Source: Candidatus Latescibacterota bacterium
Lineage (GTDB): Bacteria; Latescibacterota; UBA2968; GCA-2709665
Assembly (NCBI GenBank): GCA_965248435.1
Contig: OZ252100.1
Span: 2,400,001 to 2,464,000, forward strand
Direction of reading: 5' to 3'
Length of the DNA: 64,000 nt
Below the pieces are notes generated by a model, which did no database searches, was not told the origin of the DNA, and saw only the letters and a list, made by a program, of their open reading frames with translations. Shown piece after piece: positions 6,403 through 53,888 of the stretch. The translations under genes were made by a program, and so were the position numbers. Numbering within the stretch: position 1 is the stretch's first letter; every line of letters begins with the position of its first letter.

Positions 6403-6429
6403 ACGGGTACCGGGAAAAGAAAAAATGAT

Positions 6430-6552
6430 TCGCGAAATTCAAATCCCCCCTGCCCCCCTTTTTCAAAGGGGGGACATTGCTCTCAGTGAATTGGTTCCCA
6501 ATCAGAGAGTTGATTCTTCCCCCTTTCTCAAAGGGGGACTGAGGGGGATTTC
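6430..6552. repeat. Double-palindrome intergenic repeat, family A (CCCCCTTT-n-AAAGGGGG)
   Basis: Two hairpins with terminal IR AAATCCCCC...GGGGGATTT; homologous to 19542-19742 (inverted) and 53423-53508. Confidence 0.85.
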
Positions 6553-8507: not shown

Positions 8508-10097
8508 ATGAGTATGAGCATCAAGTGCACTTCGAAAGTCCCCCGCCAGACCTTCGCGACCACACTGGAAACGCAGCAGGAGCAGTTGAAGACGGATGAG
8601 CTGATGCTGCGCTACGCGGTGTCGCGCGAACAGCACGCCGCCGATCCGTACCTGCCCGCTTACCACTTCGTCAATCCAGAAGGCCCCATGAACGACCCGA
8701 ACGGGCTCTGCCACTGGCAGGAGCGCTATCATCTCTTTTACCAGACCAAACCTCCAGAAGACCCGCGCGAGCACTGGGGCCACACGATCAGCGACGACCT
8801 GGTCCACTGGAAAGACCTCCCTCTGGCCATCCACCCCGGCATCGAAGCCGCCTGTTTCAGCGGCAGCTCGCTGGTCGAGGAAGACCGGGTCATCGCCATC
8901 TACCACGGCCTCAAGACGGGCAACATGGTCGCCGTGTCCAGCGACCCGCTCCTCCTCAACTGGGAGAAGATCCCCGGCAACCCCGTCATCCCGATCGTCG
9001 AGGTGGACGAGACGCAGCGCCCCTACCGTGTCTTCGACCCCTGCATCTGGAAAGAAGATGACGGCTACTACGCGCTGTCAGGTACCTACCTGGATGGGGC
9101 GATCCGCCACGACTGTCGGATGGCCCAGCACCTGTTCTTTTCGCAGGATCTGAAGTCCTGGACCTATACGGGAGAGTTCGTCGAAGGTGATGTCTTCACC
9201 GGGCGGGGTGAGGACGGAGCGGTTCCCTATTTCTGGCCAATCGGCGACAAGCACATCCTGTTGTTCGCCAGCCACACACGCGGGGCGCAGTATCTGCTCG
9301 GCGACTACGAAAAGGCGCGTCAGAAATTCAAACCGTTCGCGCACGGCCGGTTCAACTTTGGATGCATCCATTCCGGCGCCGTCCACGCCCCCTGCGGCAC
9401 CCCCGATGGCGAGGGCGGCGTCTACCTTATCTGCAACATCAACGACGCCAGACCGACCGAGGGCTGGAACCACCTGATGTCTCTCGTGCGTCTGCTGACC
9501 CTGCGCGAGGACAACACACTGGGCATCGAACCTGTCCGAACTGTCGAAGCACTCCGATCCGAGCACGAACGGCTCGGTGAGACCTCCCTGCCCGCAAACC
9601 GGGAGGTCGTGCTCGAGGGTGTCCAGGGGAACACGATGGAGCTCGCCGTTGAGGTCGATCCCCGTAGCGCGCGAGAGATCTGCCTCCACGTTCTGCGTTC
9701 ACCCGGCGGAGAGGAGACGACCGAGGTCAAATTCTTCCGGCGCGGCTACATGAGGACGCATAAAGAGGATGGGAAACACCATCAGGACGCGCTCGTGATC
9801 GACACGTCCCGATCGTCGCTGCTGCCCGATGTGAAAGCACGTCCTCCCGAAATCGCGCCGTTCGAGCTCCCGTCGAATGAAACACTCAAGCTTCGAATCT
9901 TCCTGGACCGAAGCGTCGTCGAGGTCTTCGCCAACGGCACGCAATGTCTCGCCCTGCGGGTCTATCCCGAGCGCAGGGACAGCGTGGGTGTGGCCATCCG
10001 CGCTCAGGGTGGAGACGCGGTCCTGCACTCGCTCGATGCGTGGCAGATGAATAGCATTTACAAGCAGACGGCGGACGACGGACGGCAGACCGCCTAA
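8508..10097 (+). CDS. Glycoside hydrolase family 32-like protein
   Basis: MNDPNG, YHLFYQ, WGH..S.DLVHW, FSGS, FDP motifs; C-terminal beta-sandwich LRIFLDRSVVEVF. Confidence 0.9.
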   Translation: MSMSIKCTSKVPRQTFATTLETQQEQLKTDELMLRYAVSREQHAADPYLPAYHFVNPEGPMNDPNGLCHWQERYHLFYQTKPPEDPREHWGHTISDDLVHWKDLPLAIHPGIEAACFSGSSLVEEDRVIAIYHGLKTGNMVAVSSDPLLLNWEKIPGNPVIPIVEVDETQRPYRVFDPCIWKEDDGYYALSGTYLDGAIRHDCRMAQHLFFSQDLKSWTYTGEFVEGDVFTGRGEDGAVPYFWPIGDKHILLFASHTRGAQYLLGDYEKARQKFKPFAHGRFNFGCIHSGAVHAPCGTPDGEGGVYLICNINDARPTEGWNHLMSLVRLLTLREDNTLGIEPVRTVEALRSEHERLGETSLPANREVVLEGVQGNTMELAVEVDPRSAREICLHVLRSPGGEETTEVKFFRRGYMRTHKEDGKHHQDALVIDTSRSSLLPDVKARPPEIAPFELPSNETLKLRIFLDRSVVEVFANGTQCLALRVYPERRDSVGVAIRAQGGDAVLHSLDAWQMNSIYKQTADDGRQTA

Positions 10098-10187
10098 AGG
10101 CGGACGACCGACGACGGACCGCAGACCGCAGGATGAATAGTGTGATATTTCACGTTTCTAGCCGTCTGTGGTCCGTGGTCTGCGGTC
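10064..10187. repeat. Inverted heptamer array (GACCGCA/GACGACG units)
   Basis: Forward 7-mer run, AT-rich spacer, then complementary CCGTCTG/TGGTCCG/CGGTC run; similar arrays at 12287-12370 and 35413-35497. Confidence 0.8.
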
Positions 10188-17239: not shown

Positions 17240-17358
17240 GACCCCTCCCTCGTTCCCTCCCCTAAAGGGGAGGGAAGACAGAAGCGGTGCTCTTGGATCT
17301 ACCAGAGGAAATCATCTCCCCCCTCCCTTTAGGGAAGGGGGGCCGGGGGGGTTAGGTC
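17240..17358. repeat. Double-palindrome repeat, family B (CCCTCCCC-n-GGGGAGGG)
   Basis: Terminal IR GACC...GGTC; related copy at 38350-38516. Confidence 0.8.
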
Positions 17359-17956: not shown

Positions 17957-19495
17957 ATGCGTTTCATCTTGACCTGTGACGGCAGCTGCGTTGCGTTCAG
18001 GGATCCGCTGACCGTCGAACACCTGCAGAAGCAGGTGGACGTGCTTGTAGACACACAGGTGGACACTCTGTGCTACAACATCGGGTTACCCGGGGCGTAT
18101 GAATATGCCACGAAAGTGGGCACGCGGTATGGCCACGGGATGGAAAAGATGCCCGACGTCTCCTCCTACCGTGAAAGGCAGAATCTCGAAGCATTCTTTC
18201 AGCAGGGCATCGATCCGCTCCGGGTCCTGCTCGACCGCGGAATGGAAAAGGGTCTCAAGGTCTTTCCTGACATACGGATCTACGACTGTCAGTGCGGAAT
18301 CGATTTCGATCCCATGAATCGCGATCATCCGGACTGGCGGATCGGAGAACACGCCCGCTACGGTCCCGCATCGCTCATCTACGGGACCCGAGTCCCCGAC
18401 GCATACAAGAACCCCAACTACACCTGGCAGCTGGACTTCGCACATCCCGAAGTTCGACAGCGAACAATCGACATCGCCGAGGAACTGCTCACCTATCAGA
18501 TCGAAGGCCTGCAGCTGGACTTCCAGCGTCGACCCAACTACTTCAAGCCGGACGAGGCGGTCGATAACCGACACCTGATGACAGACATGGTGCGCGCGAT
18601 TCGTGCCAGCGTTCGAAAAGCCGAACAGGAGCAGGGCAGACCGGTGGAACTGCTGTGTCGGGTATGGGCGAACCTGGAGGACTGCTGGCATCTGGGTATG
18701 GATGTCAGGACGTGGGTCGAAGAGGGACTGATCGATCTCTTGATCCCGACCCATCACCTCTGCTTCGCGATCGACGCGCCCCTCGAGGAGTTTGTTGAGC
18801 TGACCAGGGACACACCGGTCAAGGTCTTGATGAACTACCTCCCGATCTTCGATTGGCCCAGGACGACCAGCGTCAGCCATCGCCCCGACCAGAAGCCTTC
18901 GTTCGCGGGCGTGCAGCTTCGGTCCCTGGATCTGGAATACGTACTGACCGGAGAGATGTGGCACGCCGGCGCCCAGATGGCCTTCGCCAAAGGCGCCGAC
19001 GGGCTGTCTATCTTCAACCTGAACCCGGCAGATTACGATGAGGGCTGGGACCTGAGCTTCCTGAGCGAGATCGCAGACCGGGACGTCGTGGCCCGGCACG
19101 ACAAGCTCTATCCCTTCATCACGGGCGAGTCGGCGAATCGATCCCGGAGCCTCAGTCGCAATGAGCCGGTAACCTATAACCTCTTCGTGGCTGAGGATCC
19201 GGCCGCTGTCGCGAAAATGACCCTCGAGGTACATATCGAAGAGCTTACGCGAGAGGATCGGCTCGAGTTTACCCTGGACGGCAAACCACTCCCGATGGAA
19301 ATTCGAACCCTTCCGGATGCATCAGGCGGCATGCACCTCCCCGGGCATCGTCCTCACCACTTCTTCGAGTGCGAGCTGACGCCCGAGTTGGTAGAGCTGG
19401 GCCCGTGCGAATTGGCGATCGGAGTGGTAGAACGAAACCCGGAGATACTTTCGCGGCTTACAGTGCTGGGTGTGAACATCAGGGTCAATCCCTGA
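17957..19495 (+). CDS. Putative glycoside hydrolase (GHL10/DUF187-like TIM barrel) with C-terminal beta domain
   Basis: HPDWRI, LDFAHPEVR, EGLQLDFQR, GMDVRTWVEEGLID, GADGLSIFN. Confidence 0.7.
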   Translation: MRFILTCDGSCVAFRDPLTVEHLQKQVDVLVDTQVDTLCYNIGLPGAYEYATKVGTRYGHGMEKMPDVSSYRERQNLEAFFQQGIDPLRVLLDRGMEKGLKVFPDIRIYDCQCGIDFDPMNRDHPDWRIGEHARYGPASLIYGTRVPDAYKNPNYTWQLDFAHPEVRQRTIDIAEELLTYQIEGLQLDFQRRPNYFKPDEAVDNRHLMTDMVRAIRASVRKAEQEQGRPVELLCRVWANLEDCWHLGMDVRTWVEEGLIDLLIPTHHLCFAIDAPLEEFVELTRDTPVKVLMNYLPIFDWPRTTSVSHRPDQKPSFAGVQLRSLDLEYVLTGEMWHAGAQMAFAKGADGLSIFNLNPADYDEGWDLSFLSEIADRDVVARHDKLYPFITGESANRSRSLSRNEPVTYNLFVAEDPAAVAKMTLEVHIEELTREDRLEFTLDGKPLPMEIRTLPDASGGMHLPGHRPHHFFECELTPELVELGPCELAIGVVERNPEILSRLTVLGVNIRVNP

Positions 19496-19559
19496 TGCCC
19501 GGTTCGCGATTTATGAGCGAATGATGTCCGTTCACATTGTGAAAATCCCCCTCAATCCC

Positions 19560-19627
19560 TCCCTCGACTCGCATGCTCGCTCACCTCGATACGGCCCTCC
19601 GGGCCTACTCGGTGCAGGCGGGACAGG
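19560..19627. mobile_element. 31-bp mini-element interrupted by a nested 37-bp mini-element (19582-19618)
   Basis: TCCCTCGACTCGCATGCTCGCT[CACCTCGATACGGCCCTCCGGGCCTACTCGGTGCAGG]CGGGACAGG. Confidence 0.72.
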
Positions 19628-19680
19628 CCTTTTCCAAAGGGGGAAGATTGCTCTTCTTTAGAGATTATAGATTCCTCCCC

Positions 19681-19703
19681 TCCCTCGGCAAGCTCGGGAC
19701 ATG
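19681..19703. mobile_element. 23-bp mini-element
   Basis: TCCCTCGGCAAGCTCGGGACATG interrupts CCCCCTTT-CGT-AAAGGGGG; similar ends to the 31-bp element. Confidence 0.7.
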
Positions 19704-19775
19704 CTTTCGTAAAGGGGGCAGGGGGGATTTGAATTTCGCGATGGCAAAACGACGGATTCAGGAGACTGACGGATT

Positions 19776-20681
19776 ATGACAACTGAGAAAGACGCAAAGC
19801 CCGTCGTCTACATCGACGGCGAGTTTTACGGGGAAAGCGACGCGAAGATCTCCGTCTTCGACCACGCCCTCCTCTACGGAGATGCCATCTACGAAACCTG
19901 CTGCGCCTGGAACGGCGCAATCTTCAAGCTGGACAGGCATATCGACAGGCTGTTCGAATCGGCCCACGCGGTGAAACTCCAGGTCCCCCTTTCCAAGGCC
20001 GAGTTGAAAGAGGTCGCCGTGGAAACCGTCCGACGCAGTAATCTCAAGAATGCCTACGTCAAGATCATCGCCACGCGAGGCGTAGGCGAACAGCCGACCA
20101 TAAGCCCCTACAACACGACACCCAGCATCATCGTCTTCGCCTGGCCCTACCTCAGCCTCGTAGCCGGCGATGTGGATCTGAAGGGGATGCGCGTCAAAGT
20201 CGCCTCCTGGCGACGCATTCCGGACATCTGCCTGCCATCGAAGGTGAAGAGCATCAACTACCTGAATCACGTTCTCATGCGCATGGAGGCGAACGAGTCC
20301 GGCTACGACGACGCGCTGGAACTCGGGACGGACGGTGATGTCACCGAAGCCCCGGGCTACAACGTCTTCGCCGTGAAACGCAGCGCCATCCAAACTCCGT
20401 CGAACAACATCCTCGTCGGCATTACCCGCGAGACCGTCCTCGAACTCGCGGCAGAAGCGGGAATCTCCGTGATCGAGGGCCAGCTCACCGTCTTCGATTT
20501 CTACAACGCCGATGAGGTGTTCTTCTCAAGCTCCGCTGGCGGCATCTTCCCGGTCAGCGAAATCGACGGGCGCGTGATCGGGAATGACGGGAAGCCGGGG
20601 CCTGTTACCGTCCGAATTCGCGACGGATATCAGGCGCTGCTCGAAAGCCGCGCCAAGAGCACACCTGTCTACCCGGCCTGA
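19776..20681 (+). CDS. ilvE: Branched-chain/class IV PLP aminotransferase
   Basis: LLYGDAIYE, HIDRLFESA, KSINYL, EAPGYNVF, LVGITR, ADEVF. Confidence 0.9.
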   Translation: MTTEKDAKPVVYIDGEFYGESDAKISVFDHALLYGDAIYETCCAWNGAIFKLDRHIDRLFESAHAVKLQVPLSKAELKEVAVETVRRSNLKNAYVKIIATRGVGEQPTISPYNTTPSIIVFAWPYLSLVAGDVDLKGMRVKVASWRRIPDICLPSKVKSINYLNHVLMRMEANESGYDDALELGTDGDVTEAPGYNVFAVKRSAIQTPSNNILVGITRETVLELAAEAGISVIEGQLTVFDFYNADEVFFSSSAGGIFPVSEIDGRVIGNDGKPGPVTVRIRDGYQALLESRAKSTPVYPA

Positions 20682-29406: not shown

Positions 29407-29569
29407 TGTCATTCCGAGCGCAGGCGAGGAATCTCAGCGTGCGATGCAGCACCCGCTACCTCGAGATATGGTTCAGAGAGTACTTCAGTTCTGAGATCCC
29501 TCGTCGCCCGCGTTTGTACTTTTCACCAAAAGAACAGCTTGACGTTCCGAGGGGCTCCTCGGGATGACA
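29407..29569. repeat. 163-bp MITE/REPIN-like nested-palindrome element
   Basis: TGTCATTCCGAG...CTCGGGATGACA terminal IR; inner CGAGGAATCTCAG...CTGAGATCCCTCG IR. Confidence 0.75.
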
Positions 29570-53422: not shown

Positions 53423-53508
53423 TCCTTTACAAAGGGGGGAGATTAGAGAGTACCCATCAGGGAATAGATTCTTCCCCCTTTGGAAAAGGGGGATTGAGGG
53501 GGATTTTT
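53423..53508. repeat. Family A palindrome abutting the DUF559 gene
   Basis: CTTCCCCCTTTGGAAAAGGGGGATTGAGGGGGATTTT ends 3 nt before the TTG start. Confidence 0.85.
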
Positions 53509-53510
53509 CC

Positions 53511-53888
53511 TTGTTGCGATACAACTACAATTTGAAGAAGAACGCAAGACAGTTGCGATCTAACATGACCGAAGCCGAGAAATTGCTCTGGTATCGACTA
53601 CGTAGAAGGCAAGTATTAGGTGTTCAATTCTACAGACAGAAACCGATCGGCAACTATATCGTTGACTTCTATGCCCCGAAACCGAAGCTCGTTATAGAGG
53701 TCGACGGATCCGATCATTTTGAAAAAGACCACGCGGAGAAAGATGCAAGGCGGGAGGGGTACTTGAGGGCACAAAACCTAGCTGTATTACGGTTCACGAA
53801 TCTGGAGGTTCTGCAGCAGACCGATGCAGTGATGAAAACAATTTTTCACAAAGTTCTTCAAACAATGGAAACAATCGTCCCTCTCTAG
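53511..53888 (+). CDS. DUF559 (Vsr-like PD-(D/E)xK) endonuclease domain protein
   Basis: ARQLRSNMTEAEKLLW, FYRQKPIGNYIVDF, IEVDGSDH, VLRFTN. Confidence 0.92.
   Translation: MLRYNYNLKKNARQLRSNMTEAEKLLWYRLRRRQVLGVQFYRQKPIGNYIVDFYAPKPKLVIEVDGSDHFEKDHAEKDARREGYLRAQNLAVLRFTNLEVLQQTDAVMKTIFHKVLQTMETIVPL

Follow-up and report, generated by a model that had tools for sequence, protein, structure and literature searches.

How can sequences of a few tens of nucleotides become inserted, with base-exact ends, into other repeats and into one another, and which enzyme, if any, moves them? The question is raised by an intergenic repeat block at positions 19538-19745 of a 64,000-nucleotide stretch of DNA from a Candidatus Latescibacterota bacterium (hereafter, the window; C1:2400001-2464000 of a genome, G000, of 5.67 Mb and 56.6% G+C in two contigs). 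The block, located between a glycosidase-like gene (end ~19495) and an aminotransferase gene (start 19776), comprises two mutually inverted copies of an H1-type hairpin repeat, the first of which is split by 68 bases (19560-19627) and the second by 23 bases (19681-19703). In a preliminary description of the window, the inserts were considered to be nested members of a minimal mobile family lacking target duplications. This view is well supported by the present analysis: the elements are discrete insertion units with exact ends, they enter without target duplication and nest in one another, as documented by paralogous and orthologous empty sites and by a patchy distribution. With moderate confidence, they are interpreted here as a family of very small DNA hairpins resembling repetitive extragenic palindromic (REP) sequences and, above all, the Ssn-related motifs (SRM), with a small single-domain GIY-YIG nuclease as the likely partner.

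The insertions can be read from the locus itself (the coordinates of its features are collected in Table 1). A scripted sequence comparison confirmed the initial observation that deletion of the 68 bases, i.e., joining 19542-19559 to 19628-19646, yields a 37-mer whose exact reverse complement stands at 53471-53507. This site had been taken for the empty site within the window; the match is indeed exact, but it is a paralogue belonging to a repeat with ~27-29 uninterrupted copies in the genome and not an allele, the true orthologous empty site being found in a contig of a related strain (see below). The 68-base insert is itself composite: a 31-base element is cut after ...GCTCGCT by a 37-base element, and once the inner part (19582-19618) is taken out, the outer element becomes letter-for-letter the uninterrupted copy C1:4978041-4978071. 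Hence, the nesting of a 37-base relative within a 31-base element, proposed from the window alone, was borne out, as was the interruption of the second, inverted host copy by a third relative of 23 bases. As had also been noticed, all three inserts share the motif NNCCTCG...CTCGGNNCAKG and the + orientation, and each of them is followed by a C. The strict motif occurs twice in the window vs. 0.08 matches expected, and none of 100 shuffles reached two. Both insert sites of the window use one local target, CCCC^CTTT, on opposite strands of the palindromic host, and an identical target on both strands is hard to obtain by copying a filled host repeat.

The same kind of restoration was applied to 33 sites of the genome, where the element was removed in silico and the joined flanks were searched against the genome. 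The excised junction was present uninterrupted elsewhere at 26 sites, with up to 29 matches per site, many of them 100% identical over 37-54 nt; the other seven junctions had no uninterrupted counterpart in the genome. At the restorable sites, as well as at the site in the window, the restoration is exact, with no base duplicated or lost, and the target-site duplication expected of miniature inverted-repeat transposable elements is absent. The base following the element was C in 39 of 40 junction sets, and the base preceding it was C in 25, T in 12, A in two, and G in one of them. The hosts are mutually unrelated and include three families of C-tract/G-tract hairpins (H1, H1', and H2), two other hairpin repeats, GTAG-headed REPs, tandem heptamers of the (CGTCYGY)n and (CGTTCGT)n types, and the family's own copies; e.g., arrays of the (CGTCYGY)n type host 24-base type D copies at other places in the genome. 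In the nested cases, copies of the long class are inserted at CT^CGG, a position used in no fewer than three different host elements; it is also occupied in a type A host (C1:3695800) and in further hosts. Overall, identical exact ends are encountered in at least eight unrelated contexts of this one genome, unique DNA included. The GTAG-headed hosts are the same REPs that flank the RAYT gene at C1:3752779-3753285; 33-base members of the family are inserted in two of their copies (C1:2558100 and C1:3047724), a case of one small repeat system parasitising another.

Orthologous sites were sought in contigs from four public runs, which were compared with window positions 18900-20300 (part of this stretch was uncovered in run X5). 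A 1565-nt seawater-metagenome contig, representing a ~96%-identical relative, showed 49 differences over 1037 aligned bases, 26 of them in 18900-19559 and 23 in 19704-20080, with 53 other letters between these parts. Since 53 equals 144 - 68 - 23, the host pair is present in the relative, and both inserts are missing. In the second run, the letters before 19704 were ...gattatggattcctccct vs. ...gattatagattcctcccc plus the 23-mer in G000, and '...ggattcctccct' runs directly into 19704; the contigs of this run (X6) end at 19559 and resume at 19704. Joints skipping exactly 19582-19618 (X1, X6), with a short side of 23-25 letters, were rejected as alleles and left uncounted, being most likely paralogous type B copies. 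In the same-genus genome G001, the flanking genes retain 82-85% identity, and the intergenic region amounts to 86 bases; since it is devoid of the whole 200-base repeat block, it provides no exact junction.

The family was delineated in the genome with the regular expression ..CCTCG.{3,45}CTCGG..CA[GT]G, which returned 53 matches: ~40 clearly related copies and a remainder with long unrelated middles that appears chance-like. The same set, with a few extra copies, was recovered by a covariance model and by a relaxed scan that allowed one mismatch and required a paired outer stem. The covariance model was built from 41 short copies and used to score 150 of 6655 first-look candidates; it gave 32 matches at E <= 1 among the candidates scored and missed the long-loop copies with the CACC stem. 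The pattern with the TCCC/GGGA stem had 20 matches genome-wide vs. none for the reversed pattern. The copies occupy many contexts and are not confined to the locus, in line with what a mobile family had been expected to show.

The elements measure 21-39 nt, with a short class of 21-26 nt and longer-loop classes of 31-39 nt. On the + strand, their layout is NNCCTCG - loop - CTCGGN'N' - CAKG. The complementary strand reads as a CMTG head (CCTG or CATG), a 4-bp stem, a tandem G.A/A.G mismatch (GA facing GA), a G-C pair, and then the loop, which is either C-GNA-G(+T), as in the 24-mers (small and GNA/GNRA-like), or a further or longer hairpin. The loop rule of the short class is that C and G are kept around a variable triplet, all four N of ACTNCG being represented in one genome (G038); in the 31-33-mers, two GA modules are stacked around a GCAA loop. 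The covariation of the outer two stem pairs, claimed initially for TC/GA and CA/TG, extends in the genome to CC/GG, with some wobble or mismatched cases; in the 41-sequence alignment, biased by the way in which the sequences were collected, pair 1-20 is UA in 27, CG in six, UG in two, and other in five sequences. Both strands fold, the G.A strand being slightly more stable in 6/8 copies with RNA parameters and in 8/8 with DNA parameters. GNA-type loops and sheared G.A pairs give rise to unusually stable DNA mini-hairpins.

The copies are mostly intergenic, 30 of 38 being situated outside crude open reading frame (ORF) calls. Relative to the upstream gene, 13 have the same and 19 the opposite orientation, i.e., there is no preference, and no replication-strand bias of the copies was detected with the origin (~3.0 Mb) and the terminus (~0.22 Mb) placed by cumulative skew. 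This lack of orientation bias argues for a DNA-level, strand-symmetric process and speaks against an RNA-level or strand-specific replicative route. No Rfam family reached its gathering score in the window, and the region 19300-19900 displayed chance-level matches only. A 19-base relative (TGCC-GA-GCGAAGC-GA-GGCA) without the CAKG/CMTG end is represented by 14 copies inside 'ccctctccc...gggagaggg / gggtgagggcc' repeats, at positions including C1:1412813, 2162411, 4067946, 4985692, 4992928, 4995704, 4999283, and 5040365; thus, the strict motif undercounts the superfamily in G000.

Beyond this genome, the family is distributed patchily. In a phylum sample of 168 genomes, the strict TCCC/GGGA-stem pattern was found in 11 genomes (zero in the reversed-pattern controls). 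The stem-free short-class pattern was matched 43 times in G038, 22 times in G000, 11 times in G086, 10 times in G037, and three times in G079, with 0-3 matches in the other genomes and 0-1 in the reversed controls. A cross-phylum scan of one genome per species revealed the strict pattern in at least 119 stretches, mostly as 23/24-mers in unrelated contexts and often in the loop of another hairpin. The labels among the matches listed include Acidobacteriota, Chloroflexota, Pirellulales, Omnitrophota, Patescibacteria, Bacteroidota, Nitrospinota/Nitrospirota, Gemmatimonadales, Poribacteria, sphingomonads, and Gammaproteobacteria (Proteobacteria). In 91 independent short copies, the next base was C in 58, T in 24, G in eight, and A in one; the second base was T in 45 and C in 25, and the preceding one T in 37 and A in 29. 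The rule that the element precedes a C therefore describes G000 well but is a mere preference across phyla. Likewise, the suggested targeting of hairpins holds in G000, but the enrichment across phyla is weak: the excised flanks fold across the junction at 67% of these 91 sites vs. 53-55% of the controls.

Viral contigs (IMG/VR, L185-L213) contain 33 stretches matching the pattern, about a dozen of which look like genuine 23/24-base copies by their loops (a judgement rather than a computed count); one identical element locus is common to three viral contigs. Coding sequences may be entered as well. In the pheT gene of an unrelated metagenome-assembled genome (MAG), three tandem 24-base copies (72 nt, 24 codons) are situated in frame in the B5 domain (L150:4012-4083, G170:C77:17111-17180), and the B5 domain match covers 89 residues for 67 profile positions. 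In another MAG, five tandem copies are located just downstream of ileS (L149:3986-4105).

The search for a mover led to the GIY-YIG nucleases. Apart from uvrC, a PF01541 profile search recovered two small GIY-YIG genes with a single domain in G000. Upstream of gene #1 (116 aa, C1:343986-344336), two tandem-G.A hairpins with a GTCA head form an inverted doublet; they represent a sister family, of which G000 has 15 copies, including one in the window at 29412. The window copy (29412-29431; GTCATTCC-GA-...-GA-GGAATCTC) has an inverted relative ~100 nt downstream, near 29530-29560. Gene #2 (106 aa, C1:350738-351058, minus strand) belongs to PF01541, with no family for it found in NCBIfam. A CCCCTCG-ATAC...CTCGGGG copy lies 43 nt upstream of this gene; downstream, an inverted copy overlaps its stop codon and itself contains a nested long-class copy with the TCCC/GGGA stem. 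The preliminary description had envisaged an ORF family flanked by the motif: such an ORF was found in the GIY-YIG gene bracketed by inverted relatives of the element, but no Y1 gene of this kind was found.

Homologues of gene #2 (E < 1e-18) are present in 14 of the 168 genomes, including 5/5 of the element-rich ones; the hypergeometric probability of this overlap, uncorrected for kinship, is 1.9e-6, or 2.3e-5 without G000. In the flanks of 13 GIY-YIG loci from 11 genomes (8.8 kb), 30 compact tandem-G.A hairpins were counted, i.e., 3.4/kb vs. 0.23/kb at control loci and 0.116/kb genome-wide (a 15-30x difference), and tandem-G.A hairpins, either compact or long-loop, lie within 350 nt at 12 of these 13 loci. 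In a gammaproteobacterial MAG (G172), the GIY-YIG gene lies exactly between two identical 23-mers, each nested in the loop of a GTCA-headed hairpin. Five genomes with a gene #2 homologue and without the strict motif harbor 36-100 copies of a sister type, CTGAGC-N3-4-TCGAAG (controls, 0-3). Overall, a GIY-YIG gene is physically and phyletically linked to the element, and the partner is most likely a small GIY-YIG nuclease of single-stranded DNA (ssDNA) rather than a classical transposase.

The closest enzymological parallel is provided by SsnA of Neisseria, a 94-aa single-domain GIY-YIG protein. It binds its hairpin repeat, NTS (of which dRS3 is a shorter form), exclusively in the ssDNA state, acts in a strand-specific manner, and cleaves a few nucleotides upstream (Chenal et al. 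2025, PMC11893778; this and the other papers cited below are drawn on in part). Nucleases of the Ssn system are assigned to the CDD family cd10448. SRM hairpins were reported at 71% of the loci of Ssn homologues, on both sides in 42%, and the NTS-ssnA-NTS layout was likened to an insertion sequence (IS) or a REPtron; insertion events and mobility are absent from the portions of that account drawn on here (PMC11893778). Both systems feature 20-50-nt hairpin repeats with an orientation set by non-palindromic ends and many intergenic copies, an architecture in which a small single-domain GIY-YIG gene is placed between repeats, and a hairpin-nuclease association that is wide across phyla and non-obligatory (PMC11893778). 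In addition, the GTCA-headed hairpins of G000 resemble the head and the stem ends of NTS (GTCATTCC...GGAATC). The differences include the head (CMTG in the present family vs. GTCW in SRM), the stem broken here by tandem G.A mismatches, and the size of elements as short as 21-24 nt. Furthermore, exact insertion units, nesting, and filled and empty orthologous sites were observed here, whereas the cited portions of PMC11893778 show no insertion events.

In the mechanism proposed, the hairpin would fold while the DNA is single-stranded, and the GIY-YIG nuclease would recognise the folded hairpin and nick beside it. Host replication, repair, or ligation could then copy or paste the hairpin into other exposed single-stranded sites. 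The elements land 5' of C (or T), mostly within hairpin-forming repeats, including the family's own copies, which results in the nesting seen at 19560-19627. The action of the gene #2 nuclease on the element is inferred, together with the steps from the nick to integration; ssDNA-specific binding and cleavage are presumed on the strength of relatives of this nuclease (PMC11893778).

A number of observations weigh against such a role of the GIY-YIG enzyme. GIY-YIG proteins are hydrolytic nucleases with no known strand transfer, which means that other factors would be required for integration. In the copies that bracket gene #2, the CAKG tail is missing and the loops are much longer. The published SRM pattern, HGTCWYN(0-2)YYVSBRHN(0-5)WNVSBRGN(0-2)RNCYNB (PMC11893778), overlaps 0/38 copies and is not enriched in the genome (45 matches vs. 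65 in the reversed genome); it also matches none of the GTCA-headed hairpins picked by the string GTCATTCCGAG. Since three of the five element-rich genomes belong to one family, the association statistics are inflated by kinship. The element-rich MAG G169 (~20 copies) has no gene #2 homologue at E <= 1e-6, and no such homologue is seen in 10 of the 32 genomes with at least 20 sister-hairpin copies, several of the 10 giving PF01541 matches only at the counts expected from UvrC, or none. This absence of a small GIY-YIG gene is soft, since the Pfam search missed uvrC too in two such genomes. Of the four homologue loci outside the phylum, two are without such hairpins. Moreover, some of the copies stem from amplification of host repeats that had been filled beforehand: the B+C composite is itself repeated, with three copies in G000 and a degenerate one in the same-genus genome, and hence independent insertions are fewer than copies. 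One of the genomes rich in the sister hairpin and of the same phylum, G059, carries 363 CTGAGC-N3-4-TCGAAG hairpins, mostly in close inverted pairs, along with only weak PF01541 matches (best E 1.8e-5) and no gene #2 homologue, which likewise counts against the nuclease; this organism could have lost its nuclease or have a different partner.

Could the elements have spread without any dedicated enzyme, e.g., by gene conversion between similar host repeats, replicative template switching at hairpins, or amplification of filled hosts? Many copies sit at one position of one host family, the B+C composite is repeated, and the recurrent C/T-rich 3' context of the short-copy flanks across phyla resembles parts of the element; several hairpin-rich genomes without a detectable small GIY-YIG gene fit this possibility as well. 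We nevertheless regard it as doubtful, since identical exact ends recur in at least eight unrelated contexts of G000 and in unrelated contexts across phyla, different phyla share the element ends and the loop rule, and conversion cannot account for the first entry into new host sequence. It appears improbable that the elements are REP-like or IS200/IS605-derived hairpins which a Y1 HuH transposase moves in single-stranded form, be it a RAYT, an IS200-type TnpA, or a relative of 'class 3'. The layout of a tetranucleotide head plus an imperfect hairpin is REP-like, HuH enzymes typically insert without target duplication, and class 3 Y1-associated hairpins have the same architecture (PMC6006769). 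G000 also encodes suitable proteins (PF01797 matches at five places and a sixth Y1-like ORF recognised by motif), but each of their genes is flanked by its own, different hairpins, and no family element was found beside the Y1 genes of G000. The RAYT-like genes of three other element-bearing genomes (G169, G170, and G086) were rejected as movers for the same reason, being accompanied by their own REPs. A search by regular expression found no ORF with the class 3 Y1 motif in G000. The class-1.2-like 138-aa Y1 protein was discarded as well: its homologues at >=50% occur in six of the 168 genomes, three with elements (G000, G038, and G079) and three without (G080, G081, and G042), and its own conserved flanking hairpins are unrelated to the family. 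Moreover, the copies show neither a replication-strand bias nor a conserved 5' target tetranucleotide, the junctions differ from the C|T sites described for TnpA-REP in the cited part of PMC8266576, and 0/5 copy-carrying viral records tested have a Y1 match. Of the two kinds of enzyme suggested initially as acting in trans, the GIY-YIG nuclease has gained support and is plausible judging from sequence, whereas the HUH enzyme was not supported, none of the Y1 genes examined carrying the element.

Two further explanations were considered. The hairpins might be immobile functional modules (terminators, stabilisers, or protein-binding hairpins) that arose in place or as variants of composite repeats, the empty sites being deletion derivatives. 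REP-type hairpin repeats can affect transcripts, most copies lie outside ORF calls, and both strands fold; still, this is a highly improbable reading in view of the missing orientation preference relative to the upstream gene, the three tandem copies in frame in pheT, the presence of the element inside very different host repeats and itself, and its presence or absence among strains with exact ends. Repeated independent exact deletion is also less parsimonious than insertion, and no Rfam family matches. It is extremely improbable that the elements derive from a larger transposon with the termini NNCCTCG and CTCGGNNCAKG, either as its footprints or as remnants of internal deletion. The conserved ends and the variable middle look like such remnants, but none of 108 terminus pairs spaced 50-6000 bp apart gave a restorable junction in G000, which largely refutes the idea for this genome, and the middle follows a structural rule shared across phyla rather than being random filler. 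A 4.9-kb stretch between inverted type C copies (C1:4998874 and 5003785), inspected by eye without a family search, contains ORFs with no sign of a mobile element, and the 14 REPtron-like inverted pairs of tandem-G.A hairpins spaced 250-3000 bp apart in G000 include none of the element family. Two identical 29-base tandem-G.A hairpins with a TGCT stem, inverted and 1237 bp apart (C1:5324305-5324333 on the minus and C1:5325570-5325598 on the plus strand), could be the ends of a small mobile unit.

Comparison with described repeats helps to place the family. As in the REP/REPIN-RAYT systems, there is a head tetranucleotide with an imperfect hairpin, 20-40 nt in size, found mostly between genes and occasionally in frame in genes such as those of tRNA synthetases (PMC3116915, PMC3733652, PMC6006769, PMC8266576); REPs inserted within small palindromes are on record, too (PMC3733652). 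In contrast to REPs, the head is CCTG/CATG (on the G.A strand) and not GT[AG]G or CGTC, the element flanks no Y1 gene, its copies are single, nested, or in direct tandem arrays and not predominantly inverted doublets (REPIN/BIME), and the element itself inserts into the GTAG REPs of G000. Miniature elements derived from IS200/IS605 have a pair of dissimilar subterminal hairpins, insert on the 3' side of a fixed tetra- or pentanucleotide, and show a replication-strand bias, whereas the present family has one hairpin, a variable 5' flank, and no strand bias. The class 3 Y1 HuH hairpins of Legionella, Planctomyces, and Solibacter, which reach hundreds of copies in some genomes, are similar in their 4-5-nt foot, 4-bp G+C stem, GA opposite GA, 2 bp, and GNRA loop, but have a CnGA foot and a CCGC/GCGG stem and are tied to a Y1 HuH gene of a kind not found in G000 (PMC6006769). 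In the literature searched on REPs, nesting, insertion without duplication, and REPIN/RAYT, nothing was found on this family.

The closest phenomenology is that of the small dispersed repeats (SDRs) of Nostocaceae. These are reported (Elhai et al. 2008, Genome Res 18:1484) to be units of ~21-27 nt that insert precisely at a fixed position of another repeat, nest in one another, and occur within tandem heptamers; the G000 family, too, is tiny, self-nested, and found in tandem heptamers. We know of no enzyme proposed for SDRs. They were reported only in Nostocaceae in the cited part of PMC5861425 (SDRs are also cited in PMC4390886), whereas the G000 family spans many phyla; the two were compared by description. 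In-frame insertion tolerated in essential genes, as with the three 24-mers in pheT, is also typical of the Rickettsia palindromic elements (RPE), and the REP-sized CGTC-1 and CGTC-4 were equated with RPE-6 and RPE-4, respectively (PMC3733652). The unit in pheT measures 24 nt, and most copies of the present family are intergenic. Classic elements of the RPE-1 type measure ~100-150 nt, i.e., they are several times longer.

Other features of the genome touch upon these repeats. Two 71%-identical genes for the 138-aa class 1.2 type Y1 HuH protein (C1:2292474-2292890, minus strand, and C1:3762366-3762782, plus strand; motif DHLH ... YV(H/Q)RQKQ(R/H)H) each lie amid three kinds of hairpins, gtggaaataaatttccac, agtccgg..ccggact, and gcgggaattcattcccgc, and similar hairpins are kept by homologues elsewhere. 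This conserved layout makes them REPtron-like, in a class said to be without terminal structures. DUF559 was considered as a partner and rejected: it is present in 70 of the 168 genomes with no relation to the element load, and G086 has none. Both DUF559 genes of G000 (window 53529-53852, plus strand, and C1:386514-386831) start right behind an H1- or H2-type hairpin. In the window, a 68-aa ORF at 19573-19779 on the plus strand (MLAHLDTALRAYSVQAGQAFSKGG...) is encoded wholly by the repeat block; its peptide piece LDTALRAYSVQA is found again at C1:5003435-5003962 because the repeat block encodes it, and such repeats seed spurious ORFs.

Table 1. Features of the repeat block and related sites in the window, followed by the length classes of the family in the genome.
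Feature	Position	Strand	Basis or remark
Host hairpin H1, left part (aaaatccccctcaatccc), split by insert	19542..19559	+	27 junction-spanning matches to uninterrupted H1 paralogues
Outer 31-base element (type B), 5' part: TCCCTCG + loop up to CT	19560..19581	+	Joined with 19619-19627, equals C1:4978041-4978071
Inner 37-base element (type C: CACC/GGTG outer stem, long inner hairpin)	19582..19618	+	Inserted in the outer element at CT^CGG
Outer 31-base element, 3' part (CGGGACAGG)	19619..19627	+	Sequence reading and genome motif scan
Host hairpin H1, right part (ccttttccaaagggggaag)	19628..19646	+	Restores the 37-mer with the left part
Second, inverted host hairpin, left part (gattcctcccc)	19670..19680	+	Uninterrupted relative at C1:1471961-1471989
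23-base element (type A: TCCCTCG-GCAAG-CTCGGGACATG)	19681..19703	+	Scores 34.7 bits with the covariance model; missing from the orthologous site of related strains
Second host hairpin, right part (ctttcgtaaaggggg caggggggattt)	19704..19735	+	Sequence reading and excised-junction search
Uninterrupted H1 paralogue, directly upstream of DUF559 gene	53471..53507	-	Matches the restored 37-mer
Uninterrupted host repeat, H1' type	6429..6481 (C1:2406429-2406481)	+	Excised-junction search
Uninterrupted host repeat, H2 type (cctaaccccc..gccccccttccctaaaggg..)	17317..17358 (C1:2417317-2417358)	-	Excised-junction search, three sites
Uninterrupted tandem-heptamer array (CGTCYGY)n	10062..10112 (C1:2410062-2410112)	-	Excised-junction search, three sites
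Sister-family GTCA-headed hairpin (GTCATTCC-GA-GCGCAGGC-GA-GGAA)	29412..29431	+	Type also precedes GIY-YIG gene #1
Length class, 23-mers			TCCCTCG-(G/A)CAAG-CTCGGGACATG
Length class, 24-mers			CCCCTCG-N6-CTCGGGGCAGG
Length class, 31-33-mers			ACTCGC..GCTCG middle
Length class, 34-mers			
Length class, 36-39-mers			Strong inner hairpin ATACGGCCC...GGGCCTA

The spread of REP-like hairpin repeats has long lacked an explanation. In the recently described Ssn/SRM pairs, what is established is the nuclease activity along with a role in transformation, but not mobility, as far as the cited part of PMC11893778 goes. For hairpins of this kind, the locus supplies exact insertion units, nested copies, and both paralogous and orthologous empty sites. 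It also offers a concrete pair, the gene at C1:350738-351058 and the 23-, 31-, and 37-base elements, with which to ask whether a hydrolytic ssDNA nuclease drives transposition-like spread. Whole hairpin families escape the published SRM pattern, so these systems probably reach further than estimated. At the practical level, the elements create spurious ORFs, break assemblies at the element ends (19559 and 19704), and can sit in frame in essential genes. In a broader and more tentative generalisation, which we consider possible rather than probable, single-domain GIY-YIG (Ssn-like) nucleases may be the mobilisers of the smallest mobile bacterial DNAs, tandem-G.A hairpins of 21-39 nt moving as single strands, exact in their ends and free of target duplication. 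Such pairs would then represent a GIY-YIG counterpart of the RAYT-REP system, extending over more than 10 phyla and capable of nesting in itself and in other repeat families and of in-frame entry into essential genes.

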